This document shows positions 10,280 through 40,388 of a stretch of 43,668 nucleotides of DNA, piece by piece. Below the pieces are notes generated by a model. It saw nothing but the letters and a program-made list of their open reading frames with translations. It did not search any database and was not told the DNA's origin. Both the position numbers and the translations under genes were made by a program. The stretch's first letter is position 1, and every line of letters begins with the position of its first letter. Origin of the DNA: Thermodesulfovibrionales bacterium (GTDB lineage Bacteria; Nitrospirota; Thermodesulfovibrionia; Thermodesulfovibrionales; SM23-35); the NCBI GenBank assembly GCA_020062205.1, contig JAGUWT010000284.1:1-43668 (forward strand), written 5' to 3'.

Positions 10280-10309
10280 GTTATTACGTTATTAAGTTAC
10301 TTTGTTATT
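10271..10309. repeat. left arm of four-helix-bundle cassette B: (GTTATTNN) x5, 8-nt tandem units
   Basis: Sequence is cgttatta ggttatta cgttatta agttactt tgttatt. The segment gttattacgttatt (10280-10293) is perfectly complementary to aataacgtaataac (10713-10726). Confidence 0.75.
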
Positions 10310-10702: not shown

Positions 10703-10750
10703 TGTGATAACCAATAACGTAATAACTTAGTAACCCAATAACGCAATAAT
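10674..10750. repeat. right arm of cassette B: (AATAACNN) x~9, 8-nt tandem units
   Basis: Sequence is ttacgc aataacgc aataactc aataatgtg ataacc aataacgt aataactt agtaaccc aataacgc aataatt. It is in inverted orientation relative to 10271-10309. Confidence 0.75.
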
Positions 10751-14061: not shown

Positions 14062-14127
14062 ACCATCCTGAACTTAATAACTTAGTAACTTGATACTAAG
14101 AAGTTCATAAGTAATACCACATAATTG

Positions 14128-14212: not shown

Positions 14213-14332
14213 GAAGAAAAAGAGTCATGTGACCTTACTCATGGTCTCATTAGTAACTCGATAACTCAATTACTTAGTTTAGGGATGAGAATGAGAAGAG
14301 GTTATGGGTTTCAAGTTATGAGTATAGGTTAT

Positions 14333-14701: not shown

Positions 14702-14786
14702 TTAATGACAATCATCTTTGCCATTATTGTTACCTCTTTGAAATAGTATATTAAACCTGCAAACTCTCAATAATTAATCAATCAAA

Positions 14787-23900: not shown

Positions 23901-23937
23901 ATTACAATAACCCAATAACTAAATTACTTAGTAACTC
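23901..23937. repeat. AATAAC/AGTAAC-type short tandem array upstream of cysC
   Basis: Sequence is attacaataacccaataactaaattacttagtaactc. Confidence 0.6.
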
Positions 23938-24619: not shown

Positions 24620-27451
24620 TTGAGCCTCTGTCTGTTGTTTATTATATTCTTATCGTTGCTTTTACCATGTGCAGCTGAAGAAATAAATGTCTCCCTCACT
24701 ATTCACGAAGCCTTAAGGGAAGGAGTCACCGGAATTGACAGGATACAGGAACCCGTAACAGTTGGAATTCCGTTTCCAAAGGGAATTCTTTCTGAAAAAA
24801 ATGGAGTGCCTCAATTAGCCCTTGAAGGGGTTAGAGAATATCAATTCCGCACCCTTGCTAAATGGCCTGATGGGTCTATGAAATGGGTACTTGTTGATTT
24901 TCAGACAAGTGTTAAATCTGGCGGCATCAATAATAATATTCATGTGATCAGGGGCAGCGGGAATTCCCCTGGCGAATTGGCAGAAGATAAAGGCGAGGTA
25001 ATCTCTATTAACACAGGAGTAATGAGTGTTCAAATAAAAAAGAAAGGTTTTAATCTCTTTGACAGCGTAATAATGGAAGGCAGAGGGATTATTGCAAAAG
25101 GAACTTCGAAGAGTATTGTTGCCATCGGGGAAGAAGGAAAGGAATATCTGGCGTTAAATGACTCAAAGACGAAGGTTTCGATTGAAGAAAACGGTCCTGT
25201 AAGAGCGGTAATAAAGGCAAAAGGAACTCATGTCGGAAATGGCAAAAGGATGATGGACTATACAGTGAGGATGCATTTTTACAAAGGCAAATCCATGGTA
25301 AGAGTGTTCTATACACTTCGTAATGCAAGTAAAGAACAGTTTGAACATGCTTATATACGTTCTCTCGATCTTGTCACTAAGTTATCATTCAACGGACCCT
25401 ACCAGATAGGTATAGCCGGGCATAATAGTGTTATAAAGGAACAGTTATCAGAAAAAGATGACAACGTGGTTTACTATCAGGCGGTTTCAGATTTTCCACA
25501 AGAGTATGCAGGTGATGCCTTTTATGATAAAGCACCCATTCCTCCGGATTACAAAAGAGAGAAAGAACGAGGATTTGTGCAGGAAGGGTACTGGATTAAA
25601 AAGGGTGAGAGAGAATTAGCAAGAGGGAAGAGAAAGGAATATCCTGATCTTGCGTTTCTCGATATCAGTGATAAAGACGGCAAAGGGGTAACCATCGGTA
25701 TCCGCTTTGCTGCAGGATGGTGGCCAAAAAGCCTGCGTGCCAGTGGTGCCGGTATAATTGAGGTTGGATTATGGCCCAAGGAAAACAAAGTAGGTTACTG
25801 GATAAGATATGGAAGCCATAATACATTTGAAGTAATGTATGAATTTCATGATAGAGCCAACGATCCTGCTGCCTCGATGAAGAAATTTCAATACCCGCTG
25901 GTGGCAAAGGCGTCAGTAGAGTGGTACAACCGAAATGTCAAGGGCATCTACCCCCTCTATAATTTTGTCTCTTTTGCTGAAGAGCAAAATTATATAAAAG
26001 GTAAAGGCTGGGATTATCTGGTCGGCTGGCGAAAACCAAAGATGAAGGTATGGCGTTACCATTATTGGGGGTGGGGAGGATTTTTAAATCAGCATGATTT
26101 TGCACGTATTGGACTGGTGAATTTTTCAAGGGAAACAGAAGATATTGTAAGAGCAGGTGAATACTTTTTAGGCGCTGAAGCGAGATTCAATTATAATGCC
26201 GACTGGGCTGTATACCACTCTGATGATTATGACCTTTCAGCTACCGAAAGGGGTAAATGGAGATTGCCTGACCCGGAAAAGAACAGAGAAAAGGCGCAAC
26301 TGGCAAAGGTTGTCTTTGAGTGGGAACATCCCCATTGGTATGGTATGCCTCTTTATTACTATATGACGGGGGATGAGCGGATCAAGGAGGCTATTCTGGA
26401 TTGGGCTGAGTATGTAAAAAAAACCCACACAAATATAACAATGGGTTCTTATCAGCGGGTCTGGGGATGGGGAATGTATACATTAGCTGCAATGTACGAT
26501 TTTACTGGTGATAAAACATTTATAGACATAGCCGATAAAAACTTCATCTGGCTTCTTGAAAACAGAGATGATTCACAGCATCGAGGAAGTACTATATTCA
26601 TCGATTGGAATCGAGGCTATATAGCAGGTGGCCCTGGAAGCGGATGGGGAAAAGAGCATGGACTTAAGCCGGGTCTCATGACAGGCTATGTACTTTTTGA
26701 TGGATTATATAACTATTATCTCTATATGGATGAAAGTAATCCACTTAAGAGAAGGGTAGCCGATGTATTAGAGGGCCTTTCGGAGTTTATGTACAGAGAG
26801 CCCTATGTCGAAGGTCGAAAGGGAGGGCACTGGGCTTTCTGGCTTCCTTATTCCTATAATCTTGAAAATAAGTCAAAGTCAGAGCATCAATACCGTCTTA
26901 TACTTCAGGCATTCTATGTCAATTTAGCCGATTATCTATTCAATGGAGGAGATAGATGGTTAGAAAGAATAGATAAGACTATAAGAATGGCTGGATGGGA
27001 CGAAAGCGGAATCTGGGATCATTTCGGTTTTATTGACCATCCTGGACTGCAATCCATGTTATATCTTCAATTACATCCCAGAACTGATATACTCCCTCCA
27101 GAGCCCGTTAAAGACCTTTCTGTAAGAGTAAATGGCGGTCATGTTATCTTAAGCTGGACTGCACCGGCTGATGCAGTGCGTTATCAGATTAAGTTCTCAA
27201 CAAAGAAACTTGTGGAATCCCTTGAGTTCGATCCAGATAAAAGGATATATAAATACAACCCTGCAGAATATGCCAACTGGTGGGCAGGAGAAAATATATT
27301 AGATGAGATCAATCCAGGAACGTCGGGAACAAAACAACAACATATCATAAAAAATCTGAAGCCCGGACATCATTATATTGCGATCAGGAGTTGGGATGCC
27401 TCAAACAACCGAAGCAGAATTTCCAATCTGGCAGAAGTTGAGATTAAGTAA
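24620..27451 (+). CDS. large secreted protein (N-terminal beta-rich region, central toroid-like region, C-terminal Fn3-like domain); possible glycan lyase/hydrolase
   Basis: TTG start after gggggtg. Signal peptide MSLCLLFIIFLSLLLPCAAEE. The N-terminal VTVGIPFPKG..WPDGSMKWVLVDF reminds me of YetA / exo-rhamnogalacturonan-lyase-like proteins. The C-terminal PEPVKDLSVRVNGGHVILSWTAPADAVRYQIKFS is Fn3-like. Confidence 0.55.
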   Translation: MSLCLLFIIFLSLLLPCAAEEINVSLTIHEALREGVTGIDRIQEPVTVGIPFPKGILSEKNGVPQLALEGVREYQFRTLAKWPDGSMKWVLVDFQTSVKSGGINNNIHVIRGSGNSPGELAEDKGEVISINTGVMSVQIKKKGFNLFDSVIMEGRGIIAKGTSKSIVAIGEEGKEYLALNDSKTKVSIEENGPVRAVIKAKGTHVGNGKRMMDYTVRMHFYKGKSMVRVFYTLRNASKEQFEHAYIRSLDLVTKLSFNGPYQIGIAGHNSVIKEQLSEKDDNVVYYQAVSDFPQEYAGDAFYDKAPIPPDYKREKERGFVQEGYWIKKGERELARGKRKEYPDLAFLDISDKDGKGVTIGIRFAAGWWPKSLRASGAGIIEVGLWPKENKVGYWIRYGSHNTFEVMYEFHDRANDPAASMKKFQYPLVAKASVEWYNRNVKGIYPLYNFVSFAEEQNYIKGKGWDYLVGWRKPKMKVWRYHYWGWGGFLNQHDFARIGLVNFSRETEDIVRAGEYFLGAEARFNYNADWAVYHSDDYDLSATERGKWRLPDPEKNREKAQLAKVVFEWEHPHWYGMPLYYYMTGDERIKEAILDWAEYVKKTHTNITMGSYQRVWGWGMYTLAAMYDFTGDKTFIDIADKNFIWLLENRDDSQHRGSTIFIDWNRGYIAGGPGSGWGKEHGLKPGLMTGYVLFDGLYNYYLYMDESNPLKRRVADVLEGLSEFMYREPYVEGRKGGHWAFWLPYSYNLENKSKSEHQYRLILQAFYVNLADYLFNGGDRWLERIDKTIRMAGWDESGIWDHFGFIDHPGLQSMLYLQLHPRTDILPPEPVKDLSVRVNGGHVILSWTAPADAVRYQIKFSTKKLVESLEFDPDKRIYKYNPAEYANWWAGENILDEINPGTSGTKQQHIIKNLKPGHHYIAIRSWDASNNRSRISNLAEVEIK

Positions 27452-27727
27452 ACCACCACACCTTTACAGGTGTGACTCTACCCAATACTGGCTTCGCCAG
27501 CAAATCATTCCATTCATCCCCGTCTTCACAGACAGGGCTTTCTTGTGTGGTGGTAAATCATTCAAGCGCAACCTTGCGGACGATGGTAATCGCCCAGCGC
27601 TTTCTGGATCCCAAACACAAACAGAAACGCCCTCCTGAGGGATAGAGGAGCAAAGATATTCCCATTAATCAGGTAGGTGGATATTTTGTGTCGGTTTTAC
27701 AGTTGACTGATTAGATAATAATGCGCG

Positions 27728-29017
27728 GTGAGAGAACAATCAGTGAATCAAAAGAAAATAGAAATTAAGGCAGTAGAAAATAGAAAGGACAATTTCAATA
27801 TTGGAAGATTGACCATGCTATTTTTATTCACTTTATTGATCATCTACGGGACTCTATACCCTTTCAGTGGTTGGCAGCAGCCTGATGGCAATATATGGAA
27901 TTTACTGGTACCAAAATGGCCCCGCCATATTTCCCGTACTGACTTAACCACAAATTTTCTGGTCTATATGCCCCTTGGTTTGTTTATCGCCAAATCTCTA
28001 AATATACGTTTAAGCTCCCTTTCAAGGATATTACTAACCACCATTCTGGGAACTGTATTCAGTTTTTCACTTGAATGTTTACAAGTGTTTCTTCCCAGCA
28101 GGGCATCATCCATTTTCGACGTTCTTTTAAATGGAGGTGGTACTTTTGCAGGTGCCACGTTTGCAGAAATCTTAGGAGATCGAACTGCTATGGGAAGAAA
28201 ATTAATATCATTGCGGCAGGAGTTGTTTTTACCTGGTCGTCTAAATGACCTTGGCCTTGTCATATTAGTTTTTTGGGCGCTGTCCCAATTAATTCCGCTG
28301 GTTCCCTCTCTCGATATAGGCAATTTGAAATACGGGCTTAAACCATTATGGAATACCCTTCATAATCTGAAGAGCTTTAATCTATATCAGGCGTTAGTAT
28401 ATACATTTAACATATTTGGCCTCGGTGTTGTCGCCTTTTTGATAGCAAAAGATAAAAATCATATGACTACTATATTTGCTACCTTTGTTACCACGGTGTT
28501 TCTTTTCAAGGTTCCGATTGTTGGACGACAACTATCTATGGAAGCAGTATCTGGGCTTGCCTGTGGCCTGGTTTTATTAATCTCTTTACGCTATATACCA
28601 AATCCGGTTTTGGTAGTTATGGCCGCAGTGGCTATCTTTGCGGCATTTGTCATCAATGAAGTGTATCCAGCTACAGCTTCTTTATCGTGTCTCCACTCAT
28701 TCAACTGGATTCCCTTTCGGAGGCAAATGACAAATTTAATGGGCATAATAAGTATCATGGAAGGGCTCTGGCCATTCGCATTGCTTGCTTACCTGACAAT
28801 GTTAATGCGCCAGTGTACACTCCTTAGCGCAATCCTTGCTGGATTGCCGCTGTTCATTCTTGTCTTTGTGATGGAATGGGTACAGCAGGGCATACCCGGC
28901 CGTTATCCTGATATTACCGCTGTCCTACTCGCAGTTATTGGATGGACTACGCCGCGGTTATTTATAGGCATTCCTATTGAGAAAATTCGTAGTGGCAGTT
29001 TACAGCCACTCAAATAA
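27728..29017 (+). CDS. VanZ-like domain polytopic membrane protein
   Basis: Motifs LLIIYGTLYPF and FSLECLQVFLPSRASSIFDVLLNGGGTFAGA (VanZ signature), followed by about 8 more hydrophobic helices. The start is uncertain (GTG 27728 or ATG 27815). Confidence 0.7.
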   Translation: MREQSVNQKKIEIKAVENRKDNFNIGRLTMLFLFTLLIIYGTLYPFSGWQQPDGNIWNLLVPKWPRHISRTDLTTNFLVYMPLGLFIAKSLNIRLSSLSRILLTTILGTVFSFSLECLQVFLPSRASSIFDVLLNGGGTFAGATFAEILGDRTAMGRKLISLRQELFLPGRLNDLGLVILVFWALSQLIPLVPSLDIGNLKYGLKPLWNTLHNLKSFNLYQALVYTFNIFGLGVVAFLIAKDKNHMTTIFATFVTTVFLFKVPIVGRQLSMEAVSGLACGLVLLISLRYIPNPVLVVMAAVAIFAAFVINEVYPATASLSCLHSFNWIPFRRQMTNLMGIISIMEGLWPFALLAYLTMLMRQCTLLSAILAGLPLFILVFVMEWVQQGIPGRYPDITAVLLAVIGWTTPRLFIGIPIEKIRSGSLQPLK

Positions 29018-29030
29018 AGAAGAAGTTTTT

Positions 29031-30242
29031 ATGAAGATCCTCCATATCCTCGACCATTATAAGCCCCACTTCAGTGGGTATGTCTTCAGGACAAGTTATA
29101 TCCTGAGATATCAAAAGGAGTTGGGCCTTGAGCCAATAGTGGTTACCTCACCAAAGCATGGTAATGCAGAGAAATCCCTCGAAGAGATTGACAATATAAA
29201 AATCTACAGGGCACCAGCCAATAATTTTGGGGGAATTCCATTCCTGAAAGAGGCACGATTAATGAAAGTACTTCGGGACAGGATTGTAGAAGCTGTCAGG
29301 AGAGAAAAACCTGATATCATCCATGCTCATTCACCAAGCCTCAATGGCATACCAGCATTGAGGGTAGGGAGGAAGTACAGTATACCTGTTGTCTATGAAA
29401 TAAGGGCTTTCTGGGAAGACGCTGCTGTTGACCATGGGACTTTCCGTGAAGGCTCTCTTCGATACAAGTGGAGCAGATTCATAGAGACAGAATTATTGAA
29501 AAGGGTTGATGCGGTATTCACAATATGTAGGAGTCTCAAGAAGGAGATAGTAGCAAGAGGTATAGAGGATAATAAAGTTACAATAATACCAAACTGTGTC
29601 GATGGAGGATATTTTTCACCCACAGCATATGATAAGGAGATAGCTGATAGATATGGCTTGGTTGATAAGATTGTCTTTGGTTTTATTGGTTCATTCTACC
29701 ACTATGAAGGGATAGATCTCTTGATAGATAGCTATAGAAATACTCTGAAAAAAAATAGAGATACACGGTTGCTCCTGGTCGGTGATGGACCTGAAAGAGT
29801 TGCACTTTATAAAAAGGCAGAAGAAAATGGGTTACTCGGCCATGTTATTTTTACCGGAAAGGTTCCCCATGAGGATGTAAAGAGATACTACTCAGTGATA
29901 GATTTCCTTATTTATCCAAGAAAGAGCATAAGACTTACTGAGCTCGTGACCCCTTTAAAACCCCTTGAGGCTATGGCAATGGGGAAGATTGTTGTTGGCA
30001 GTGATGTCGGTGGGATTAGAGAGTTGATAACACCTGATAAAGATGGACTACTGTTTAGAGCAGGAGATGCTGATGAACTTTCAAGATTGTTGATTGATCT
30101 GGCGCTGAATAATAAAGACCTTAAAAGAATCTCAATGACAGCAAGAGAGACAGTAGAGCATCAGCATAAATGGGAATCGGCTGTCAAAAAATACCTACCG
30201 ATATATGAGCATTTGATAAAAAAATTAAAAAATAACCAATAA
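29031..30242 (+). CDS. glycosyltransferase family 4, of the type found next to exosortase-locus AsnB genes
   Basis: ATG 29031 (MKILHILDHYKPHFSGYVFRT). The listed start at 28977 overlaps the VanZ-like gene. Motifs TELVTPLKPLEAMAMGKIVVGSDVGGIRELI. The C-terminal KNNQ-stop lies in an AATAAC array. Confidence 0.85.
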   Translation: MKILHILDHYKPHFSGYVFRTSYILRYQKELGLEPIVVTSPKHGNAEKSLEEIDNIKIYRAPANNFGGIPFLKEARLMKVLRDRIVEAVRREKPDIIHAHSPSLNGIPALRVGRKYSIPVVYEIRAFWEDAAVDHGTFREGSLRYKWSRFIETELLKRVDAVFTICRSLKKEIVARGIEDNKVTIIPNCVDGGYFSPTAYDKEIADRYGLVDKIVFGFIGSFYHYEGIDLLIDSYRNTLKKNRDTRLLLVGDGPERVALYKKAEENGLLGHVIFTGKVPHEDVKRYYSVIDFLIYPRKSIRLTELVTPLKPLEAMAMGKIVVGSDVGGIRELITPDKDGLLFRAGDADELSRLLIDLALNNKDLKRISMTARETVEHQHKWESAVKKYLPIYEHLIKKLKNNQ

Positions 30243-30269
30243 ACTAATAACTCAATAATTTTCTAAACC

Positions 30270-32216
30270 ATGTGTGGCATAGTCGGAATCATAAATACCG
30301 TTTTAACACCTGAAAGGTCTCTTTTAGAGAAGATGTGTAGGATAATGACCCACAGAGGGCCTGATGGGGAGGGGTGTTACATTGAAGGACCTATCGCTCT
30401 TGGACACAGGAGATTGAGCATTATAGACCTTGAGGGTGGAAAACAACCAATGAGTAATGAAGATGACACAGTGTGGATTACCTTCAATGGAGAAATATAT
30501 AACTTTCCCGATGTTCAAAGAGAACTTGAAAAAAAAGGACATCGATTTAAAACAAGAAGCGATACTGAAGTGATTATTCATGCATATGAAGAATATGGGA
30601 AAGAGTGCATAAAGTATTTCAGGGGGATGTTTGCATTCGGAATTTGGGATAGTAAAAAAAAGGAACTCTTTCTTGCACGTGACCGTCTTGGGAAGAAGCC
30701 TCTTTACTATTATGTTGATGACAGGAGTTTTATCTTTGCCTCAGAAATAAAGGCAATCCTTCAGGATGAATATATAAAAAGAGAACTTGATGTAAAGGCA
30801 CTGGCTGATTACTTTACCTATCATTACGTTCCGTTTCCTGAAACAATATTCAAAGGCATACATAAACTGCCACCAGGACATTTAATGACTGTTCGAATTG
30901 TTCAAGATGTTCGAGACGTTCAAGTCGTTTCGAACAAGTGTAATGATCGAACGAGCGAAGCGATCGAACATATCGAATTTACTATTCATCAATACTGGGA
31001 TATTGAATATAAACCGGACTATTCTCTATCAGAACAGGAGTGGGTAGAGGCATTAAAGGAAAAACTGAAAGAAGCAGTCAGGATCAGGCTTATCAGTGAT
31101 GTGCCACTTGGGGCGTTTCTCAGTGGAGGGATAGATTCAAGCACTGTTGTTGCATTCATGAGTATGGTTCAGAACACACCTGTCAAAACATTCTCAATAG
31201 GGTTCAAAGAAGAGGATTTCAGCGAAGTGAAATATGCACGGGAGGTTGCCAAGAGGTTTGGAACTGAACATCAGGAAATGGTGGTCGAGCCCGATGCTAT
31301 AGAGGTATTACCAAAGCTCGCATGGGAATTTGACGAACCTTTTGCAGATTCTTCAGCCATACCTACCTATTATGTATCTAAAATGGCGAGGAAGTATGTA
31401 ACCGTCATCCTTTCTGGTGATGGCGGTGATGAAACCTTTGCTGGCTATAGGAGGTATCTATGGGCAAGGGATATGCATAAATACGACTGGATACCTCTGC
31501 CTTTGAGGGCAATAGTATTCGGAATTCCTGCTGCACTACTCCCAGATGGTATGAGAGGCAAAGGTATGCTCAGGCACCTTTCAAACGGTCCCTTTGAGCG
31601 ATATGCAGGTCTTAATACCTTTGGAGAACTGAACTCCCTCAAAAATCTCTTGAGCACAGATGTTCTGAACGAAGTCCAAAAGAGACAAAATGGGAGGTTG
31701 CATGACTATGCCTTTCTCAAGAAGTATTATGACTTCTGTAAGCATGACGACTATCTCACAAAGATACAATACATGGACACAAAGACCTACCTTGCTGAGG
31801 ATATTCTAACCAAGGTAGATAGGGCAAGCATGCTCTGTAGTCTGGAGACCCGTGCTCCATTACTTGATCATGAGGTAATTGAACTTGTTGCCAGAATTCC
31901 ATCATCCATGAAGATAAAAGATGGTGAGACGAAATATATCCTCAAAAAGGCAATGGATGGAATCCTCCCTGATACGATTTTGTATAGAAAAAAAATGGGC
32001 TTTGGGGTGCCTCTTATATATTGGTTTAAGAAAGATTTAACACAATATGCACGTGAGGTTCTTCTTTCTCAGGAAACTAAACATCGAGGAATATTTAATC
32101 AGAGCTATATCAAGAATATTTTGGAGAGACATCAGAAAAAGGGAAGAGACCTGAGTGCTAAGATATGGGCACTTCTTTTTTTCGAACACTGGTGCAGGAA
32201 CTGGCTTGATACATAA
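30270..32216 (+). CDS. asnB: asparagine synthase (glutamine-hydrolysing) family amidotransferase, exosortase-locus type, with an in-frame repeat insertion
   Basis: MCGIVGII (Cys2 nucleophile), HRRLSIIDL, RDRLGKKPLYYY and the PP-loop GAFLSGGIDSSTV. The extra segment IVQDVRDVQVVSNKCNDRTSEAIEHIE follows PPGHLMTV. Confidence 0.9.
   Translation: MCGIVGIINTVLTPERSLLEKMCRIMTHRGPDGEGCYIEGPIALGHRRLSIIDLEGGKQPMSNEDDTVWITFNGEIYNFPDVQRELEKKGHRFKTRSDTEVIIHAYEEYGKECIKYFRGMFAFGIWDSKKKELFLARDRLGKKPLYYYVDDRSFIFASEIKAILQDEYIKRELDVKALADYFTYHYVPFPETIFKGIHKLPPGHLMTVRIVQDVRDVQVVSNKCNDRTSEAIEHIEFTIHQYWDIEYKPDYSLSEQEWVEALKEKLKEAVRIRLISDVPLGAFLSGGIDSSTVVAFMSMVQNTPVKTFSIGFKEEDFSEVKYAREVAKRFGTEHQEMVVEPDAIEVLPKLAWEFDEPFADSSAIPTYYVSKMARKYVTVILSGDGGDETFAGYRRYLWARDMHKYDWIPLPLRAIVFGIPAALLPDGMRGKGMLRHLSNGPFERYAGLNTFGELNSLKNLLSTDVLNEVQKRQNGRLHDYAFLKKYYDFCKHDDYLTKIQYMDTKTYLAEDILTKVDRASMLCSLETRAPLLDHEVIELVARIPSSMKIKDGETKYILKKAMDGILPDTILYRKKMGFGVPLIYWFKKDLTQYAREVLLSQETKHRGIFNQSYIKNILERHQKKGRDLSAKIWALLFFEHWCRNWLDT
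30891..30978. repeat. GTTCRA/TCGAAC 9-nt-periodic palindromic element, copy in the asnB coding sequence
   Basis: Units are gttcgaatt gttcaagat gttcgagac gttcaagtc gtttcgaac aagtgtaat gatcgaacg agcgaagcg atcgaacat atcgaat. That is ten 9-nt units, about 30 codons. Confidence 0.75.
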
Positions 32217-32254
32217 AGATGGCAACTAGTTTTGTCCCTTATAGAGAGCGGTTA

Positions 32255-32524
32255 TGAGGAGGATATAAATATTCCTGTCACAGTACGTGAGGCTCTAAGA
32301 AAGGTGTCAGTGGGATTGATAGGACCGAGGAGACGGTTACAGGTTGGTATAACCCTTTCCAAGGGGAATGCTTTATGAGAAAATGGGTATGCCACAATTA
32401 TCAGTTGATGGTATGAAAGACTATCAATTTCGCATGCTGAAGCAGGATGATGGTTCAGTAAAATGGGGATAAACATAATAACAGAGTAAGATTTCTAATC
32501 TCGCCGAGGTAGAGATTAAATAAA
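32255..32524 (+). pseudogene. internally deleted, decayed paralogue of the 943-aa secreted protein gene
   Basis: 32255-32472 aligns to codons ~20-95 of 24620..27451 (EEDINIPVTVREALR.., VGITLSKG.., DGMKDYQFRMLKQDDGSVKW). It contains two in-frame TGA stops and frameshifts. 32481-32524 aligns to the last 14 codons plus stop (aacagagtaagatttctaatctcgccgaggtagagattaaataa versus aaccgaagcagaatttccaatctggcagaagttgagattaagtaa). Confidence 0.85.
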
Positions 32525-32602
32525 AACAAAAATATCATTCCTTCAAAGGTGGGTAAATAGTTTGAATATCTATAATAGTTTTAAATTGGAGAAGAACTAA
32601 AT

Positions 32603-35600
32603 TTGAAAAGGGAACACGAAGCATCACGCACCCGTATAGAAAAAGTACTATCGAAAATCTGGGCTGAAGTCCTCGGTCTTGAGCGAATCCACGTTGAGGA
32701 TAATTTTTTTGAGTTAGGTGGTGATTCTATCAATGTCCTTCAGGTGATCGCTATAGCCAATCGTGAAGGCTTACAATTTACTCCGAAACAGTTTTTTCAA
32801 CATCCTACCATTGCTGAGCTAGCTACCGTAACGGTTCCACTTTCAACTTCATGTGCAGAACAGGGTATCGTCAAAGGCAGGATACCACTAACTCCTATTC
32901 AGCACTGGTTTTTTGAACAGGGAGTCCCAGAACCAGAGCAATGGACACAGTCTATATTGCTTGAAGTGCATCACCCTCTTAAAGTTTCTATATTGCAAGA
33001 AGCCATTCGACACTTGCTTGTTCATCACGATGCACTGCGTGTGCGCTTTACCCCAGGGGAGCTGGGTTGGGAACAGTTTTGCGTTGGTAACGAAGAATTA
33101 GTACCGTTTAACAGGTTAGATTTGTCAGGACTTTCAGGTGGAGAGTTAAAACATGTCATTGAGGCTGAAGCAGCAAAATTGCGTGCTGGTTTAAACATAT
33201 CAAAGGGACCACTTATGCAAGTAGCCCTCTTTGACCTTGGCACTTCCCAACCGAATCGACTACTTATAGTCATTCATCATTTAGTAGCGGACGGTGTTTC
33301 ATGGCGGATCTTGCTGGGGGATCTCCAGACAGCCTATATGCAACTCAGCCGTGGTGAATTAATAAAACTGCCTGCCAAGACGACCTCGTTAAAGCAGTGG
33401 GCAGAACGACTTGAGGCATATGCACAATCAATAGAGCTGCGACATGAGATGAAATACTGGCTTGCACAGCCATGGAGTCAAGCAGGATGTTTACCTGTGG
33501 ACTTTCCAGATGGTGACAATACCGAGGCTTTGGCTTGGGCTGTGTCGGTTTCGCTCACTGCTGAAGAGACAAAGGCTATTTTACAGGAGATTCCCAAGGT
33601 ATACCATGTCCGTGTCAACGATATCTTGATCACGGCGCTGGTGCAGGCCTTTGCACCATGGATCGGAAAGGATTGTCTTCTCATAGATCTAGAAGGTCAC
33701 GGTCGGGAGGCTATTTTCGATGATGTGGATCTGTCTCGGACGGTGGGGTGGTTTACCTCAATTTTTCCTGTGCTGCTGGATCTTAAGAATGCGTCAGGAC
33801 TCAGGAGTACCATGAAGTTGACACAGGAACAAATGAATCATATTCCGCATAAAGGTATTGACTATGGCATACTGCGCTACCTCAGCAGTGCTGAAAATGC
33901 TCGTCGACTTCAAAGTCTGCCTCAGGCCGAGGTTAGTTTTAACTACTTTGGACAATTCGATCAACTATTTTCAGGCACATCTATGTTTAAGCCAGCCTCT
34001 GAAACTATTACTCCTGTACAGTTAAAGGGTCTATTGCAAGAGTCATATGGGTTAAAGGGAACACGGAGGCATTTAATAGATATTAGTGGAAGCGTATTTA
34101 ATGGCAAGCTTTGGTTTAACTGGACGTATAGCAAGAACGTTCATCGCGAAACGACAATCCGTTACCTTGCTGAAGACTACGTGGCTGCACTCCGCTCGAT
34201 TATTAATAGCTATCAGTCTACCGAGGCCGAGTCTTACAAACCTTTCAACTCTCGGGGGACCTTCTTATGCAATGAAGAGTTTGATGCTAAAAATAAACAG
34301 CTCATTGAAGGCAGCGCTACAGGTGATAAGAGTTTGGAAAATGTTGAGGCTATTTTCCCGCTTTCCGCCATGCAGCGGGGGCTTTTATTTCACAGTCTTC
34401 AGAATCCCGAGTTGGGTATCTACATCGTGCAGGATTGTTACATGCTTTATGGTGACTTAAACATGCCGGCATTTAGGGAGGCTTGGATGCATGTATCAAA
34501 GCGACATACCGCCCTGCGGACTGTATTTATCCCAAAAGGGCACAAACAGCCACTTCAGGCCATTCACAAGGTAGTAAATTTATTAATCGAAGAACATGAT
34601 TGGCCTGATCTGGGAGCAACCGATCAGAAAGAGCAAATAGAGTCTTTCCTCAAGATGGACCGCGAAAAGGGCTTCGACCTTACAAAGAGTCCACCACTGC
34701 GTCTTGCCATAATCCGATTAACCAAAGACGTCTATCAATTTATTTTAAGTTTCCATCACGCATTACTTGATGCTTGGTCTGTGTCTTTACTAATCAGGGA
34801 AGTTTTTGACTTCTATCAGGCACTCTGTTATGGGAGTGAGTACAAAATGGATTCAAACCATCCCTATATGGATTATATTACATGGCTTCATCAGCAGGAT
34901 CTGTCCCAGGCTGAGGGTTTCTGGCGGCAGATACTGAAAGGGTTTACAGCACCGACACCTTTAGGAATGATTGCAGAGCGTAATGGTTTATCATGCCATG
35001 TTGATGGTTTTAGTGAAGGAGAAATTAAGTTATCTGCAGCCACTACGGCAGCGTTGCAGTCCTTTGCACAGCGTCATCATCTCACTCTTAATACCCTGAT
35101 TCAGGGTTCGTGGGCCCTGTTGCTAAGTCACTATAGTGGTGAGAAGGAAGTAGTCTTTGGGGTCGTTGTGTCTGGTCGTCCACCTGCTCTGGAAGGAGTC
35201 GAGTCCATGGTAGGACTATTTATCAATACCTTACCAGCACGGGTACAGATACATGACAAGGAGACACTATTTCTTTGGTTGAAGAAGCTTCAAAACCAGC
35301 AAGTTGAGATGAGACAGTATGAATATAGTCCTTTGGTAAAGGTAAAAGAGTGGAGTGAAATTCCAAGCGGTGTTCCTCTGTTCGAGAGTATATTGCTTTT
35401 CCAGAATTACCCGGTGGACGATATGTTAGTAGCGAGGCATGGAAACTTAAAGATAGAGAATGTACGAACAGTGGAAAGGACTAATTATCCACTTACCCTG
35501 GTAGCAATACCAGGTTCAGAATTAATATTGCGGCTCATGTACCATACCCCTCGTTTTAATGCTTCTACCATTGCCCAGATGCTTGACCATTTACAAACCT

Positions 35601-36472
35601 TGCTGGAGGGCATGCTTGCCAATCCACAGGCGCGACTTTCAGACATCCCGTTGTTAACCGCAGCACAACAGCGCCAACTCCTTGTTGAATGGAATAATAC
35701 CAAAACGGACTACCCCAGGGATGCAACTATCCCTGAACTGTTTGAGGCACAGGTAGAACAGACACCCGACACCGTAGCAGTTATATTTGGAGACCATCGA
35801 CTTACTTATCGGGATTTGAATCAGAGAGCAAACCAGCTATCGCACTACCTGAGGTACTTAGACGTTTCACCGGAAGTGCGGGTTGCTATTTGTATGGAAC
35901 GCTCCCTGGAAATGGTAATAGGACTTTTAGGCATACTCAAAGCAGGTGGTGCATACGTGCCTCTTGACCCCTTGTACCCTAAAGAAAGGCTATCGTTCAT
36001 GCTGGCAGATGCTCAGGTGCCAGTGTTGTTGACCCAAAAGCAGCTGATTCAGAGATTGCCAAAGCATATGGCTAGGGTAGTGTGTCTTGATGAAGAGTGG
36101 GGACATATAGCAGGAGAAAGCGACCAAAATCCACCCAGGAGAACTAAGGCGGAAAACCTAGCCTGTATAATTTATACTTCAGGTTCAACCGGCAAGCCAA
36201 AAGGAGTGGAAGTTCTCCACCGTGGTATTGTTCGTTTATTATTCGGCACGGATTACGTCAAGCTTGATGCGACACAGAGATTTTTGCATATGTCTGCAAT
36301 CACCTTTGATGCTTCTACCTTTGAGATTTGGGGAGCATTGCTTCATGGTGCCCAATGTGTTCTCTTGCCGGGAAGAATACCTAGTTTAGAAGAAATAGGC
36401 ATGGCGATACAAAAATATGGCATTACCACCCTCTGGTTAACAGCTGCACTATTCAACGTGATATATAGATGA
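32603..36472 (+). CDS. non-ribosomal peptide synthetase, N-terminal part (T-E-C and A-domain cores A1-A4), interrupted by a frameshift
   Basis: TTG start 11 nt after ggag. T domain: FFELGGDS (Ser codon 32726-32728). E domain: PIQHWFF, HHLVADGVSW (33275), LEGHGRE, RTVGWFTSIFP, FNYFGQ. C domain: SAMQRGLLF, HHALLDAWS (34754). A domain: LTYRDLN, LKAGGAYVPLDP, IIYTSGSTGKPKG (36173), FDAS. It ends at TGA 36470-36472 in the middle of the A domain. Confidence 0.9.
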   Translation: MKREHEASRTRIEKVLSKIWAEVLGLERIHVEDNFFELGGDSINVLQVIAIANREGLQFTPKQFFQHPTIAELATVTVPLSTSCAEQGIVKGRIPLTPIQHWFFEQGVPEPEQWTQSILLEVHHPLKVSILQEAIRHLLVHHDALRVRFTPGELGWEQFCVGNEELVPFNRLDLSGLSGGELKHVIEAEAAKLRAGLNISKGPLMQVALFDLGTSQPNRLLIVIHHLVADGVSWRILLGDLQTAYMQLSRGELIKLPAKTTSLKQWAERLEAYAQSIELRHEMKYWLAQPWSQAGCLPVDFPDGDNTEALAWAVSVSLTAEETKAILQEIPKVYHVRVNDILITALVQAFAPWIGKDCLLIDLEGHGREAIFDDVDLSRTVGWFTSIFPVLLDLKNASGLRSTMKLTQEQMNHIPHKGIDYGILRYLSSAENARRLQSLPQAEVSFNYFGQFDQLFSGTSMFKPASETITPVQLKGLLQESYGLKGTRRHLIDISGSVFNGKLWFNWTYSKNVHRETTIRYLAEDYVAALRSIINSYQSTEAESYKPFNSRGTFLCNEEFDAKNKQLIEGSATGDKSLENVEAIFPLSAMQRGLLFHSLQNPELGIYIVQDCYMLYGDLNMPAFREAWMHVSKRHTALRTVFIPKGHKQPLQAIHKVVNLLIEEHDWPDLGATDQKEQIESFLKMDREKGFDLTKSPPLRLAIIRLTKDVYQFILSFHHALLDAWSVSLLIREVFDFYQALCYGSEYKMDSNHPYMDYITWLHQQDLSQAEGFWRQILKGFTAPTPLGMIAERNGLSCHVDGFSEGEIKLSAATTAALQSFAQRHHLTLNTLIQGSWALLLSHYSGEKEVVFGVVVSGRPPALEGVESMVGLFINTLPARVQIHDKETLFLWLKKLQNQQVEMRQYEYSPLVKVKEWSEIPSGVPLFESILLFQNYPVDDMLVARHGNLKIENVRTVERTNYPLTLVAIPGSELILRLMYHTPRFNASTIAQMLDHLQTLLEGMLANPQARLSDIPLLTAAQQRQLLVEWNNTKTDYPRDATIPELFEAQVEQTPDTVAVIFGDHRLTYRDLNQRANQLSHYLRYLDVSPEVRVAICMERSLEMVIGLLGILKAGGAYVPLDPLYPKERLSFMLADAQVPVLLTQKQLIQRLPKHMARVVCLDEEWGHIAGESDQNPPRRTKAENLACIIYTSGSTGKPKGVEVLHRGIVRLLFGTDYVKLDATQRFLHMSAITFDASTFEIWGALLHGAQCVLLPGRIPSLEEIGMAIQKYGITTLWLTAALFNVIYR
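32624..32827 (+). other. NRPS domain: carrier (T/PCP) domain 1
   Basis: IWAEVLGLERIHVEDNFFELGGDSINVLQV. Confidence 0.85.
32882..34207 (+). other. NRPS domain: epimerisation (E) domain
   Basis: All seven E-type cores were recognised by eye: PIQxWF, HHxxxDGVSW, DILITA, EGHGRE, RTVGWFT, GIDYG and FNYxGQ. Confidence 0.8.
34343..35647 (+). other. NRPS domain: condensation (C) domain, presumably DCL type because it follows E
   Basis: Motifs LSAMQRGLLFH, RHTALRTVF, HHALLDAWS, GLFINTLP and NYPLTLVA. Confidence 0.8.
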
Positions 36473-37211
36473 GGCACCACGGATATTAGATGGCATCCGG
36501 CAGTTGCTTGTTGGTGGAGATGCGCTTTCAGTTTCGCATGTTCTCAAAGCCCTTGAGGTTTTACACACCATACAGATCATCAACGGCTATGGTCCCACTG
36601 AGGGCACGACATTTACCTGTTGTTATACTATTCCTCGTCAACTTGATAAAACCGCGCTATCAATCCCTATAGGGCGTCCCATTTCCAATACACAAGTCTA
36701 CCTGCTTAATTCATATCTGCAGCCGGTGCCCGTTGGGGTTCCAGGTGAAATTTACATTGGAGGAGATGGTCTTGCCCGAGGCTATCTCAATCAGCCCGAA
36801 TTAACAGCCGAAAAGTTTATCCCCAATCTGTTCAATGATGACCCGGGTGCACACCTGTACAAGACAGGGGATCTGGCACGTTACCTGCCAGACGGTAATA
36901 TTGAGTTCATCGGTCGTCTTGACCATCAGGTGAAGATCCGTGGCTTCCGGATCGAGCTGGGAGAGATTGAGTCAGTGTTAGGACAACATCCCGCTGTTCG
37001 TCAAGTAGCGGTAATTACCCGTGAAGATGTACCCGGCAGCAAAAGCCTAGTAGCCTACATTGTCCCTGTTCGCGAAGGAGTTATCTCGGCACGGGAGATG
37101 AGGCATTTCTTGAAAGAAAAGCTACCAGACTATATGATTCCCTCTGCTTTTGTATTTTTGGAAGCTTTGCCGTTAACGCCGAATAACAAAATAAACCGCA
37201 AAGAGTTACCA
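35720..37211 (+). other. NRPS domain: adenylation (A) domain, spanning the frameshift at about 36461-36469
   Basis: Cores A1-A10 are present across the two frames. The hand-derived specificity code is D A F W L G G T F K. Confidence 0.8.
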
Positions 37212-38243
37212 CCGCCAAGCCATAAGCCCAGTAACCGAAAGGAGTGTTTTGTGGCACCACAGGATGCTATTGAGGTTCATCTGATGAGGATTTGGGAGGA
37301 TATTTTAGACATACACAAGATAGGGATAAGGAATAACTTTTTCGAATTAGGCGGCAACTCCCTTCAGGCCGTTCGTCTGATAGATAAAATTGAACATTTT
37401 TTTGGCAAGAGGCTGCCTTTGGATATCCTCTGGCACAATGGATCAACCATAGAAGATATGGCTGTTGCTCTTCGAAGGGAGGAAGGCTCCACTCTCTGGT
37501 CCTCTGCTATACCGATCAAGCCCGATGGTTCACGAAGATCATTATTCTGCACTCATATCGCTGGAGGGTACTTTTTTTATTACGATAAATTAGCCAGCTA
37601 CCTAAACCAAAAACAACCTCTTTATGCAATACCACCTCAGTATGTTGATGGTAAACATCATCCTCACACAACGATTGAAACGATGGCATCACACTGCATC
37701 CAACTCATGAGACAGGTTCAACCAGAAGGTCCATATTCTATCGCCGGCTTCTGCAGTGGTGGTGTGATAGCTTTCGAAATGGCCCAGCAGCTTCATGCAC
37801 AGGGTGAAGAAATGGCATTGTTAGCATTATTAGACAGTCTGGCTCCGGGCTTTCATTTGCGTCTTTTTATTCGAGTATTGTTAGATTTTCTCCGGTTAAA
37901 GAATGTGAGGCTTGTGCAGGAACGTTTGTACCACATGTTTTTGCGGGCATTTGGTATGCCGCATCTTCGTGTTTTCCAAAAGGCTAGCGAAGCCCACCGT
38001 TGGGCTTTGTGGAGCTATAAAGCCAAGCCTTACTCGGGGCGTATTACCCTGTTTCGGCCAAGTAAATACAAGTATTCCAGTGATCCCCTGTTGGGCTGGG
38101 GTAAGCTCGCAATGGAGGGAGTGGATGTTCATGTGATTCCTGGTAAGCACGGAGAAATGGTTAAAGAACCTATTGTACAGGTCATGGCCAAACAACTCGA
38201 AACCCATCTTGCTGGGATAGATGCTAATGAAAAGACAGTTTAA
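36504..38243 (+). CDS. non-ribosomal peptide synthetase, C-terminal part (A-domain cores A5-A10, T, TE)
   Basis: The frame is open from 36462 (YIDEAPRILDGIRQLLVGGDAL). A domain: NGYGPTE, GEIYIGGDGLARGY, YKTGDLARY, GRLDHQVKIRGFRIELGEIE, LPDYMIPS, NNKINRKEL. T domain: FFELGGNS (Ser 37359-37361). TE domain: GFCSGG (Ser 37755-37757) and GKHG (His 38148-38150). Confidence 0.9.
   Translation: MLVGGDALSVSHVLKALEVLHTIQIINGYGPTEGTTFTCCYTIPRQLDKTALSIPIGRPISNTQVYLLNSYLQPVPVGVPGEIYIGGDGLARGYLNQPELTAEKFIPNLFNDDPGAHLYKTGDLARYLPDGNIEFIGRLDHQVKIRGFRIELGEIESVLGQHPAVRQVAVITREDVPGSKSLVAYIVPVREGVISAREMRHFLKEKLPDYMIPSAFVFLEALPLTPNNKINRKELPPPSHKPSNRKECFVAPQDAIEVHLMRIWEDILDIHKIGIRNNFFELGGNSLQAVRLIDKIEHFFGKRLPLDILWHNGSTIEDMAVALRREEGSTLWSSAIPIKPDGSRRSLFCTHIAGGYFFYYDKLASYLNQKQPLYAIPPQYVDGKHHPHTTIETMASHCIQLMRQVQPEGPYSIAGFCSGGVIAFEMAQQLHAQGEEMALLALLDSLAPGFHLRLFIRVLLDFLRLKNVRLVQERLYHMFLRAFGMPHLRVFQKASEAHRWALWSYKAKPYSGRITLFRPSKYKYSSDPLLGWGKLAMEGVDVHVIPGKHGEMVKEPIVQVMAKQLETHLAGIDANEKTV
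37257..37469 (+). other. NRPS domain: carrier (T/PCP) domain 2
   Basis: IWEDILDIHKIGIRNNFFELGGNSLQAVRL. Confidence 0.85.
37530..38198 (+). other. NRPS domain: type I thioesterase (TE)
   Basis: LFCTHIAGGYFFYYDKLA, GFCSGG (GxSxG) and the C-terminal GKHGEM. Confidence 0.8.
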
Positions 38244-39027
38244 AAATACCTTACAGGATACACCTGAGTTGCAATGGCTGACTCCACCAGAGCAACTAAT
38301 CCTTGCTAATGACGAGGTTCACATCTGGCGGTTATACATAAATTCAGAATTCTCTAATATCCAATATCTTAAAGGGATACTTTCTAACGAAGAACGTACT
38401 AAGGCTGAAGGATTCTATTTTAAAATAGATCAATGGCGGTATATTATAGTTCGAGCCATACTGAGAATAATCCTTGCTAAATACCTGTGTCTTGAACCTG
38501 AACAAATTCGATTCAACTATGGAACACATGACAAGCCTGCCTTATCCGATGTGCTGAAGACACATAGAGTCAATTTCAATTTGTCCCACTCTCAAAATAT
38601 AGCTTTATATGTAATAGTTTGTGATCGAGAGGTTGGAATAGACATTGAAAATATTCGTACCGATTTGGATGTCTTGGGAATTGCAGAACATTGGTTTTCT
38701 CAGCGAGAAGCTGCTGTTATCAGGGAATTATCCTCAGATGCACAGAAGAAGGCATTTTTTACGATTTGGACTCGCAAGGAGGCGTATCTAAAGGCAAAAG
38801 GAGTGGGATTAGCCCAACTGAATGGGTTTGAAGTTTTATTACATCTTGGAGAGCTTACTATTTTGATGAGCAGTGAAGAAGATTCCCACGAACCATCACT
38901 CTGGAAACTGGAAGACCTGGCAGTTGACCCTGATTATGCAGCCACTGTTGCTGTTGAGGGTAAAACATGGACCCCAAAATTCTGGCAATGGAGCCCAATT
39001 TATAAACTCGAAAGGTTCTTCTTTTAA
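38221..39027 (+). CDS. 4'-phosphopantetheinyl transferase, Sfp type
   Basis: ATG 38221 overlaps the NRPS 3' end by 23 nt. Motifs HDKPAL, NFNLSHSQNIA, VGIDIE and FFTIWTRKEAYLKAKG. Confidence 0.9.
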   Translation: MLMKRQFKNTLQDTPELQWLTPPEQLILANDEVHIWRLYINSEFSNIQYLKGILSNEERTKAEGFYFKIDQWRYIIVRAILRIILAKYLCLEPEQIRFNYGTHDKPALSDVLKTHRVNFNLSHSQNIALYVIVCDREVGIDIENIRTDLDVLGIAEHWFSQREAAVIRELSSDAQKKAFFTIWTRKEAYLKAKGVGLAQLNGFEVLLHLGELTILMSSEEDSHEPSLWKLEDLAVDPDYAATVAVEGKTWTPKFWQWSPIYKLERFFF

Positions 39028-39060
39028 CAGTAATCACTACTGTCCGCTTAAAATAGGGAC

Positions 39061-39168
39061 TGTTATATCCAGACTATGTTAGAAATACATCAAAAAAGGG
39101 GAAGAGACCTGAGTGCCCCTTTGTGGGCATTGCTCTTTTTTGAATACTGGTGCAGGAATTGGATGTAG
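39061..39168 (+). pseudogene. remnant of the last 35 codons of an AsnB paralogue
   Basis: It translates to CYIQTMLEIHQKRGRDLSAPLWALLFFEYWCRNWM-stop. The C-terminus of the 30270..32216 product is SYIKNILERHQKKGRDLSAKIWALLFFEHWCRNWLDT. 24 of 35 residues are identical. A TAA lies immediately upstream and there is no N-terminal part. Confidence 0.85.
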
Positions 39169-39170
39169 GT

Positions 39171-40388
39171 GTGAAAATCCTCGTTATTACAACCATCTTT
39201 CCTAATTCAAAACAGCACACCCTCGGCATCTTTGTGAGAGAAAGGATGTTTCAGGTTGCAAAACACTGTGAGATAAAGGTCGTAGCTCCTGTTCCATGGT
39301 TTCCTTTTGTGCGGTATATCAAGAAGGGTTATAGACCAAAGGTTCCTTTTTTGGAGATTCAGGATGGGATAGAGGTATACCATCCGCGCTTCTTCAATAT
39401 CCCGAAACTTTGTAAATTTCTTGATGGAATCTTTTTCTTTATATCATCTATACTTACAACAATAAACTTAAGAAAAAGCTTTAAGTTTGATATTATTGAT
39501 GCACACTTTATTTATCCTGAGGGATTTGGGGCGGTACTTCTTGGCAAGGTAATAAGAAGGCCTGTCATTATTACAGAAAGGGGAACTATACGAAAACTAT
39601 TAAAGTATCCCCTTATTAAACCTCAGATTCAATATGCCTTGGGCAAGGCCGTAAAAGTCTTTACGGTCTGCAATGATCTGAAAAAGGCTGTTACAGAGCT
39701 TGGCATCCCTGAAAAAAGGGTAGTAGTCGTCCCGAATGGAGTTGATATTGAAAAGTTTAAGCCTGTTGAGAAGCAAAAGGCCCGGAAAGAACTTGGGCTC
39801 TTAGAATATAAAAAGATTATCATCTCAGCGGGCGGACTTGTTGAAAGAAAGGGATTTCATAGGATTATCTCTGTCCTCCCTGAGATTAAAAAAACCATAC
39901 CAGAAATAATGTATGTGATCGTTGGAGGAGCCTCTGTTGAAGGTAACTATGAGCCGGTATTACGCAAGATGGTCAAGGATTTAAATCTTGAAAATGATGT
40001 CTTATTCGCAGGACCTCAGCCCCATGATGTTCTCTACAAATGGCTCAGTGCATCAGATATCTTCTGCCTCGCAACAAGCAATGAGGGATGGGCAAATGTT
40101 TTTTTAGAGGCAATGGCCTGTGGACTTCCTGTTGTTACAACACGTGTTGGCGGTAATGAAGAGGTGGTTATATCTGAGGATTATGGATTACTTTTCAATT
40201 TAGAAGACAGACAAGAGATGATTGATATGATATTGAAAGCCTTGAAGAAAGACTGGGGTAGAGAAAAGATTGTCCACTATGCACGATCAAATACATGGGA
40301 CGAGCGGATTCATGATTTGCTCAATAATATCAAAGATATCATTAATCCTGATAAATCCTATGTTTCAGCTAAGGTGTTTACGCCATAA
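39171..40388 (+). CDS. glycosyltransferase family 4 (GT-B)
   Basis: The likely start is GTG 39171 (MKILVITTIFP), directly after the remnant's TAG. The ORF track start at 39150 lies inside the remnant. Motifs NGVDIEKF and TSNEGWANVFLEAMACGLPVVTTRVGGNEEVV. Confidence 0.85.
   Translation: MKILVITTIFPNSKQHTLGIFVRERMFQVAKHCEIKVVAPVPWFPFVRYIKKGYRPKVPFLEIQDGIEVYHPRFFNIPKLCKFLDGIFFFISSILTTINLRKSFKFDIIDAHFIYPEGFGAVLLGKVIRRPVIITERGTIRKLLKYPLIKPQIQYALGKAVKVFTVCNDLKKAVTELGIPEKRVVVVPNGVDIEKFKPVEKQKARKELGLLEYKKIIISAGGLVERKGFHRIISVLPEIKKTIPEIMYVIVGGASVEGNYEPVLRKMVKDLNLENDVLFAGPQPHDVLYKWLSASDIFCLATSNEGWANVFLEAMACGLPVVTTRVGGNEEVVISEDYGLLFNLEDRQEMIDMILKALKKDWGREKIVHYARSNTWDERIHDLLNNIKDIINPDKSYVSAKVFTP

Follow-up and report, generated by a model that had tools for sequence, protein, structure and literature searches.

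The 108 nucleotides at positions 39061–39168 of the window, a complete metagenomic contig of 43,668 bp (JAGUWT010000284.1, from a Thermodesulfovibrionales bacterium), are, as judged from the sequence, a pseudogene stub: the 3' end of a copy of an AsnB-type amidotransferase gene that once lay directly upstream of the glycosyltransferase gene GT4b. By its gene content the window is an XrtA/PEP-CTERM-type exopolysaccharide locus. Its intact AsnB-type gene (648 aa; 30270–32216, plus strand; Pfam Asn_synthase, GATase_7 and GATase_6) ends 6.95 kb before the start of GT4b, and this interval holds a nonribosomal peptide synthetase (NRPS) in two open reading frames (ORFs) and a HetI-like 4'-phosphopantetheinyl transferase (PPTase). 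Together with a remnant of a 943-aa gene that follows the intact AsnB, the stub probably represents the two ends of a second '943-aa gene ... AsnB' block copy, which would have diverged strongly before it was destroyed.

Translation of 39061–39168 (plus strand) gave CYIQTMLEIHQKRGRDLSAPLWALLFFEYWCRNWM, 35 codons without an internal stop or frameshift, followed by TAG. The peptide was aligned without gaps to residues 612–646 of the intact AsnB (SYIKNILERHQKKGRDLSAKIWALLFFEHWCRNWL), with 25/35 residues identical. The initial annotation of this DNA had counted 24; the homology that it proposed held in a statistical alignment check (tblastn of the stub against the window: 71.4% identity, E = 8.4e-13). 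At the DNA level, 32106–32204 and 39064–39162 form a gapless direct repeat of 99 nt with 80% identity (blastn E = 2.5e-21, for a database of five short junction segments, about 4.7 kb together). The spacing between the two AsnB ends (32217–39060) is 6,844 nt, in agreement with the earlier description of diverged direct repeats around a 6.8-kb segment. A start codon and the catalytic domains (the N-terminal glutamine amidotransferase and Asn_synthase domains of a full-length AsnB) are missing from the stub, which retains only the last 35 codons and is too short for scoring with the NCBIfam model TIGR03108. No AsnB homology was found 5' of 39061; the PPTase gene ends at 39027. At positions that are otherwise conserved among the 17 compared tails, three replacements (K/R to P, I to L and H to Y) are unique to the stub, which is a short sequence. 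The TAG (39166–39168) abuts GT4b as had been described, since the GTG start of the public gene call (P0121, 405 aa) is at 39171, 2 nt further on; alternative GT4b starts are located inside the stub, at 39150 and 39159. A look-up of the PPTase led to an independent public contig (L165, JGI sample 3300037880) that matches positions 38100–40274 of the window with 100% identity and thus extends across the junction of PPTase, stub and GT4b, so this junction is not an assembly artefact.

A GT4b genome scan, an AsnB metagenome scan and context look-ups of the closest GT4b homologues yielded 165 loci, and the AsnB–GT4b spacing was compared in those with an AsnB 68–72% identical to that of the window. 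GT4b orthologues were found in 90 loci. The closest relatives are 80% (AsnB, L161) and 75% (GT4b) identical, the nearest being metagenome-assembled genomes (MAGs) of Thermodesulfovibrionia/Nitrospirota; exact-sequence look-ups of AsnB and of a 412-aa version of the GT4 protein gave no match. In five loci (L003, L004, L005, L006 and L164) AsnB is followed directly by GT4b, with a gap of 3–20 nt and no NRPS, an arrangement that the initial annotation had suggested looking for in related genomes. In such relatives the AsnB stop overlaps or abuts the GT4b start. GT4b (39171–40388, plus strand; assigned with Pfam and NCBIfam) is natively located after AsnB, and in a junction alignment the stub and the start of GT4b in the window were colinear with the tight native junction of L003–L006; hence the stub is the AsnB end that originally abutted GT4b. 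Upstream of it lies the 6.95 kb, to which the 3' end of the AsnB that is now intact belongs; the NRPS and PPTase genes are absent from the close relatives examined. Wider spacings are found in L161 and L007, which have inserts of 127 and 245 nt, respectively, and in L001 and L002, in which an unrelated 486-aa gene lies between AsnB and the orthologous GT4b and no stub precedes the latter. The inserts of L161 (1262–1380) and L007 (1480–1718) are small, non-coding and placed exactly at the AsnB/GT4b junction; that of L161 is similar to a dispersed repeat element. A derivation of the 486-aa gene of L001 and L002 from the 943-aa gene was considered and rejected (BLASTP E 1.5, no Pfam domains); it is a separate locus gene.

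The two AsnB ends of the window differ in form. The stub has a trimmed end (NWM-stop), as is found where AsnB abuts or overlaps the next gene: in L164 and L003, before GT4b, and in L082, before a different glycosyltransferase. The intact AsnB has the ancestral W-L-D-x-stop end (CTT GAT ACA TAA), as in L084, L085 and distant homologues. The possibility that the window specifically shares its junction of AsnB stop and 943-aa gene start with L083 and L084 was also considered and was rejected as a sign of a common event, because CTT GAT nnn TAA is ancestral and beyond it only 'AG ATG' matches.

The other end of the lost copy was mapped to 32226–32523 (plus strand), confirming that a remnant of the 943-aa gene precedes the NRPS (E = 3.5e-12). 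It consists of codons about 9–89 of a second copy of this gene, followed by the last 13 codons and a TAA (32482–32523). Residues 9–55 and 51–89 are in two frames, with a +2 frameshift near 32353–32366; about 840 codons (2.5 kb) are deleted internally and the N-terminus is deleted as well. The protein identity to the intact gene is 59% for residues 51–89 and 85% for residues 931–943 (tblastn), and the DNA identity is 73% over 134 nt and 82% over 34 nt (blastn). The intact gene (24620–27451, plus strand; PcRGLX-like N-terminal domains, Pfam PF21345 and PF19501) is the first of the surviving block, and orthologues with 62–67% identity are present in L081, L083, L084, L096 and L164. The layout is thus tandem: the intact block at 24620–32216, then the scar of the 943-aa gene at 32226–32523 and, behind the NRPS and PPTase genes, the AsnB stub at 39061–39168. 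The initial annotation had explained it by a duplicate of the block whose interior was replaced by the NRPS/PPTase segment, and had read this as a hint of a recent acquisition. The bracketing scars do agree with the intact block in order and orientation; a fresh or recent duplicate is not in line with their divergence.

The scars are about as diverged from the intact copies as the latter are from orthologues in other genera. The DNA of the stub is 80% identical to the AsnB gene of the window itself, compared with 82% for L082, 81% for L161 and 76% for L001. Codons 51–89 of the scar of the 943-aa gene show 59% protein identity to the intact gene and 61–69% to its orthologues; for the last 13 codons the nearest sequence is the gene of the window itself. 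Between scar and intact copy, the proportions of synonymous (pS) and non-synonymous (pN) differences are 0.53 and 0.13 in the AsnB tail and 0.55 and 0.21 in codons 51–89 of the 943-aa gene, which gives a ratio of non-synonymous to synonymous change (omega) of about 0.16 and 0.26, respectively; the alignable scar codons number just 33 and 38, and all of these rate estimates are noisy. When 20 random substitutions were placed in the intact tail, at most 8 amino-acid changes and no stop were obtained in 0.09% of the trials (P = 0.0009). Since the differences are mostly synonymous, most of the divergence arose while both copies were under protein-level selection, and the omega of 0.16 for the stub follows from its having once been part of a working gene. 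In a fresh duplicate the dead copy would diverge neutrally, and that is not what was found. Both scars are equally deep, which fits one source.

The NRPS/PPTase segment is itself in decay. The NRPS is encoded by two ORFs (32603–36472 and 36504–38243; 32603–38243 together, plus strand) with the Pfam domain order T-E-C-A-T-TE. Three-frame translation revealed a frameshift within its A domain, located in the run gatatataga (36460–36469) or immediately next to it; when the frames are joined, a protein of 1,878 aa is obtained that is colinear with its homologues. This frameshift may have arisen by mutation or in the assembly. The sequences EGHGRE and TVGWFT, which we take to be E-domain motifs, are visible in the translation. 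The NRPS begins at a T domain, with no adenylation domain or remnant of one upstream, and does not qualify as a functional assembly line: the A domain is interrupted and the first carrier domain has no loading A domain. The PPTase (38221–39027, plus strand; Pfam ACPS and AASDHPPT_N) is of the Sfp/HetI type and scores 230 bits with the NCBIfam HetI model, under the cut-off of 370. The best homologues are at most 51–53% identical for the NRPS and 50% for the PPTase; no donor could be named from the top matches (50–53%), which come from cyanobacteria, Tectomicrobia and others. In two proteobacterial MAGs (L063, 17230–21171, and L021, 18043–21178) an NRPS ending in A-T-TE is likewise followed by a PPTase, the two being 42–46% and 33–35% identical, respectively, to those of the window; these pairs are convergent to the XrtA loci of the same MAGs and lie 2–3.4 kb beyond them, and their vicinity to XrtA may be a coincidence or a recurrent association.

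A recent tandem duplication combined with a recent acquisition of the NRPS, as initially proposed, would account for the structural layout, and the composition of the segment seems at first to agree with it: its G+C content is raised (0.44–0.47 versus 0.38–0.42), and the tetranucleotide distance peaks over the NRPS. The excess is, however, mainly at first codon positions (0.56–0.57), because of the amino-acid content. At third positions the G+C content of the NRPS (0.42–0.44) deviates from the contig mean (0.379, sd 0.048) by no more than about 1 sd, and that of the PPTase (0.349) is below the mean, so the profile of G+C and codon usage does not bear out a recent acquisition. Composition is at best a weak sign of a foreign origin of the NRPS and is no sign of recency. 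The arms of the repeat differ by 20% and the scars show a pS of about 0.54 and an omega of about 0.16–0.26; the NRPS has a frameshift and no A domain for its first carrier domain; and the scar of the 943-aa gene carries a frameshift as well as the 2.5-kb and N-terminal deletions. The identical contig L165 speaks against a version of this explanation in which the differences in the stub are assembly errors. On this evidence a recent event is very improbable.

The gene orders of the relatives bear on the origin of the second copy. The order GT4a-AsnB-GT4b is found in L003–L006 and L164; AsnB-943aa-(APS kinase)-GT4a-GT4b in L083, L084 and L096; and GT4b-methyltransferase-AsnB in L162 and L163. 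An AsnB adjacent to the 943-aa gene and an AsnB adjacent to GT4b are thus each normal in different relatives. Two AsnB copies must once have coexisted, one before the 943-aa gene and the other before GT4b. The identity to the AsnB of the window is 72–80% for genes beside GT4b, 61–62% for those in the order of L083, L084 and L096, and 46–47% for those of L162 and L163. In L083, L084 and L096, GT4b, the 943-aa gene and the exosortase are 63–70% identical to their counterparts in the window and AsnB just 61–62%; since AsnB is far less conserved than its neighbours, the AsnB genes at different positions of the locus would belong to distinct lineages. Recombination with another exosortase locus, which the initial annotation had offered as an alternative, is at least as likely as a duplication in situ, because AsnB occupies at least three positions in the relatives, including one directly upstream of the 943-aa gene.

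Our tentative preference, held at somewhat less than an even chance, is for additive recombination with a diverged homologous XrtA/PEP-CTERM locus, which would make the second copy xenologous. This reading is favoured because of the differences between the gene ends, the instability of tandem repeats and the balance of gene flux over duplication. Tandem repeats as long as 7.6 kb are unstable until they have diverged. An old tandem duplication in situ of the block from the 943-aa gene to AsnB, after which both copies were functional for a long time (synonymous distance, dS, about 0.9), would have required sustained selection for such a repeat to survive. In that case copy 2 would have been lost afterwards by deletion and insertion of the NRPS/PPTase segment, that is by duplication and then differential loss (SNAP-type), and the process could convert GT4a-AsnB-GT4b into AsnB-943aa-GT4a-GT4b. 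A duplicate of the trimmed gene would, furthermore, regain the L-D-x-stop end (CTT GAT ACA TAA) just by chance, and the AsnB identities of 61–62% in the AsnB-943aa loci versus 72–80% in the GT4b-adjacent loci indicate that the two orders do not share one recent duplication. In prokaryotes, gene gain and loss are about ten times commoner than duplication (PMC12184515).

Several observations count against a xenologous origin, and most of these speak for the old duplication, which we consider a serious rival explanation, with a probability well short of even. The scars mirror the order and orientation of the resident block and directly follow it, as in a tandem duplication. With the two scars pooled, which gives about 40 synonymous sites, their pS to the resident copy is 0.54; this is lower than the values for the scar and any sampled relative (0.69–0.98) and is thus the lowest of all comparisons; both scars have the same depth. 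The lowest pS is equally compatible with a duplication within the lineage, with a closer donor outside the sample and with shared codon usage; the nearest known relative of the lost copy appears to be the resident one, but at a dS of about 0.9. The resulting adjacency of AsnB and a following 943-aa gene is the normal order in L083, L084 and L096, and experiments have shown that gene order can change when a duplication is followed by losses from one copy or the other (PMC9016547). No donor lineage was identified for the second copy, and sliding windows of 40 and 10 codons, compared with 8 to 15 orthologues, revealed no switch in similarity that would mark a recombination breakpoint inside AsnB. 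No relative nearer than 80% (AsnB) is present in the collections, and the order of events is undatable.

Under the preferred recombination, two differently ordered homologous XrtA/PEP-CTERM loci would have recombined such that a xenologous block was added beside the resident one. With two copies present, one would be redundant, the AsnB function being supplied by the intact gene at 30270–32216. The interior of the redundant copy would have been lost through a deletion within the 943-aa gene, and everything between the end of this gene and about codon 611 of AsnB would have given way to the NRPS/PPTase segment, which itself decayed subsequently. The stub may have been kept as the native 5' flank of GT4b, given that a longer deletion would damage the region of GT4b expression and initiation. 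Its persistence for the sake of GT4 expression is conjectural; a search of the stub gave neither a convincing Shine-Dalgarno sequence nor a promoter.

A retained function of the stub, which is compatible with any of the origins discussed, would be that of a leader ORF of 30 codons (ATG at 39076 to 39168) or of an attenuator that couples or tunes GT4 translation. The ATG-initiated ORF ends 2 nt before the GTG of GT4b, the 35 codons are free of stops and frameshifts, and the overlapping or abutting of AsnB stop and GT4b start in the relatives allows translational coupling. In addition, a terminator-like hairpin with a T-run is present in the stub (39112–39141, plus strand) and is kept in the intact AsnB (32153–32184). 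In both copies it sits within the codons for LSAxIWALLFF, however, and is largely dictated by this peptide; the hairpin and T-run may be a by-product of the coding sequence. A comparable pairing can be drawn in several AsnB orthologues, an observation confounded by the conserved peptide and the genomic G+C content. Upstream of the ATG at 39076 no ribosome-binding site could be recognised, a promoter scan of the stub gave no prediction, and L001 and L002 lack a stub before their GT4b. Nothing was found to show that the ORF or the hairpin is functional, and overall we regard a function of the stub as unlikely.

The topology of the repeats also fits a mobile island that integrated site-specifically at the AsnB 3' end, bringing a replacement 3' end and leaving attL/attR-like repeats: the left gene end is intact, the native right end is displaced, and the repeats flank 6.8 kb of foreign-looking DNA. 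In L002, too, duplicates of this gene end flank a small element: the AsnB 3' block (TGTTATTTTTTGAGCATTGGTGCAGAAATTGGAT) is present as a perfect direct repeat of 34 nt on either side of an element of 204 nt with the ends CTTGCAAAA and TTTTGCAAG (2960–3231). No integrase, transposase, excisionase or tRNA was found on the contig (the recombinase check with Pfam and NCBIfam covered 32 of the 33 ORFs of at least 150 aa, the remaining one being a 164-aa reverse-strand ORF at 14778–15272), and scans of the junctions for tRNAs, Rfam families, promoters and inverted repeats gave no mobile-element or RNA signatures. Moreover, the insert begins with the scar of a locus gene and not with island DNA, the repeats are 80% and not fully identical, and the 6.8-kb unit was not found elsewhere in the searches made. 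An island of this kind is, in our view, very improbable.

The repeat in L002 is an independent and recent duplication of the AsnB gene end in a relative. Among the 165 loci, the AsnB 3' pattern TTTTTTGARCAYTGGTGCAGRAAYTGG occurs twice within 10 kb in L002 alone, besides L090 and L139, in which the two matches are about 9–10 kb apart and the second seems to belong to another AsnB gene. The L002 repeat, the inserts in L161 and L007 and the gene inserted in L001 and L002 suggest that the AsnB 3' end is a repeated breakpoint in the relatives. One may go further and see in the window a natural intermediate of operon reordering by duplication and differential loss, with one copy of a doubled '943-aa gene ... 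AsnB' block in the course of being erased, which would link the orders GT4a-AsnB-GT4b and AsnB-943aa-GT4a-GT4b with the AsnB 3' block as a recurrent site of recombination; we consider this broader interpretation doubtful.

A third scar is located at 27619–27714 (plus strand), between the 943-aa and VanZ-like genes, and comprises the C-terminal 31 codons of a gene of the ORF486 family. It reads KQKRPPEG-stop-RSKDIPINQVGGYFVSVLQLTD-stop, with an internal TAG (TGG-to-TAG) and a terminal TAG (tblastn E 1.9e-8 versus the window), and shares 90% of its residues with the C-terminal end of the intact L081 protein. ORF486 followed by VanZ is a native adjacency in L163; intact members of the family are found at varying positions in L001, L002, L006, L081 and L083, and C-terminal parts cut by the edge of the locus in L003 and L163. 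Judged by the sequences at hand, the three stubs and the variable positions of AsnB reflect a repeated remodelling of the locus.

All large ORFs of the window are on the plus strand except the 164-aa one mentioned above, which lies inside a GT2 gene. The locus includes genes for sugar-nucleotide enzymes, GT2 and GT4 glycosyltransferases, a Wzy-like polymerase, an APS kinase, the 943-aa PcRGLX-like protein, a VanZ-like protein, a PaaK/CapK-like AMP ligase, an exosortase and EpsI. GT4a is a GT4 of the stp3 type (TIGR04063, 511 bits, above the cut-off of 442). The exosortase scores 199.1, just under the XrtA-specific cut-off of 208, and the intact AsnB scores 720 bits with TIGR03108 (the XrtA/PEP-CTERM amidotransferase model; cut-off 816.9) and 544 bits with the general asparagine synthase model TIGR01536, passing its cut-off of 267. 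A gene for a putative endonuclease of the Uma2 family (PF05685) is found at 13510–14061, amid glycosyltransferase genes. Intergenic arrays of ATAACnnn with an 8-nt period are present at 10272–10308, 10675–10750, 14077–14089, 14253–14273, 23907–23927 and 30239–30259, upstream of several locus genes and directly before the start of AsnB (23 matches versus 2.2 expected); they may be regulator-binding arrays. The NRPS/PPTase insert has none of these bar one chance-like match with a single mismatch (37183–37195). A CGAAC-rich repeat (core GAGCGRAGCGATCGAAC) occurs in frame in two unrelated genes, at 14996–15087 (GT2) and 30930–30977 (AsnB), and both insertions fall where the orthologues are shorter or poorly aligned.

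Overall, the case is one of ordinary, cleanly documented locus remodelling and gene decay and not of a new molecular system. It documents the remodelling of a large exopolysaccharide/exosortase locus, with three stubs, a decaying NRPS and a recurrent gene-end breakpoint. For annotation, no gene should be called at any of the three scars (AsnB, 943-aa gene and ORF486), and the NRPS needs marking as disrupted and should be left out of counts of working biosynthetic clusters. With respect to evolution, scars that resemble a fresh duplication can be old, as the codon-position pattern tells, and the locus offers a concrete test of duplication and loss versus xenologous recombination, given closer relatives.

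Four known systems are comparable to this arrangement. The SNAP process of duplication and then loss (Cao et al. 2022, PMC9016547) likewise involves two block copies in direct order, with gene loss that leaves scars and new neighbourhoods. In the window the new neighbourhood is that of AsnB beside the 943-aa stub, and relatives show the alternative order. SNAP copies, however, start identical and decay within thousands of generations, whereas the copies described here are at a dS of about 0.9 with signatures of purifying selection, and foreign NRPS/PPTase DNA fills the interior.

When a genomic island integrates at a gene 3' end and restores that gene, attL/attR duplications are left behind. 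Similarly, direct repeats of a gene 3' end flank the insert in the window, with the upstream copy intact and the downstream fragment displaced; the differences are the missing recombinase, the divergence of the repeats (80%) and the locus-gene scar with which the insert starts. XrtA/PEP-CTERM exopolysaccharide loci were reportedly described by Haft et al. in 2006 (NCBIfam TIGR03108, TIGR04063, TIGR03109 and TIGR02914). With its stp3-type GT4, AsnB-type amidotransferase, PaaK/CapK-like ligase, exosortase, EpsI, Wzy-like polymerase and many glycosyltransferases the window resembles these loci. It differs from them in that an NRPS and PPTase within the locus are not part of the described system and in that the amidotransferase and exosortase score just under the XrtA-specific cut-offs.

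In homology-facilitated illegitimate recombination, said to have been described by de Vries and Wackernagel in 2002, xenologous DNA is added by means of one homologous anchor and one illegitimate end. The process is reported from naturally transformable laboratory species and is not known from Nitrospirota, and neither a breakpoint nor a donor is at hand for the window. Its outcome is nevertheless similar to what is seen here, as a single event would give an intact gene, foreign DNA and a short displaced duplicate of the gene end, and the highly conserved 40-nt block at the AsnB 3' end could be the anchor.

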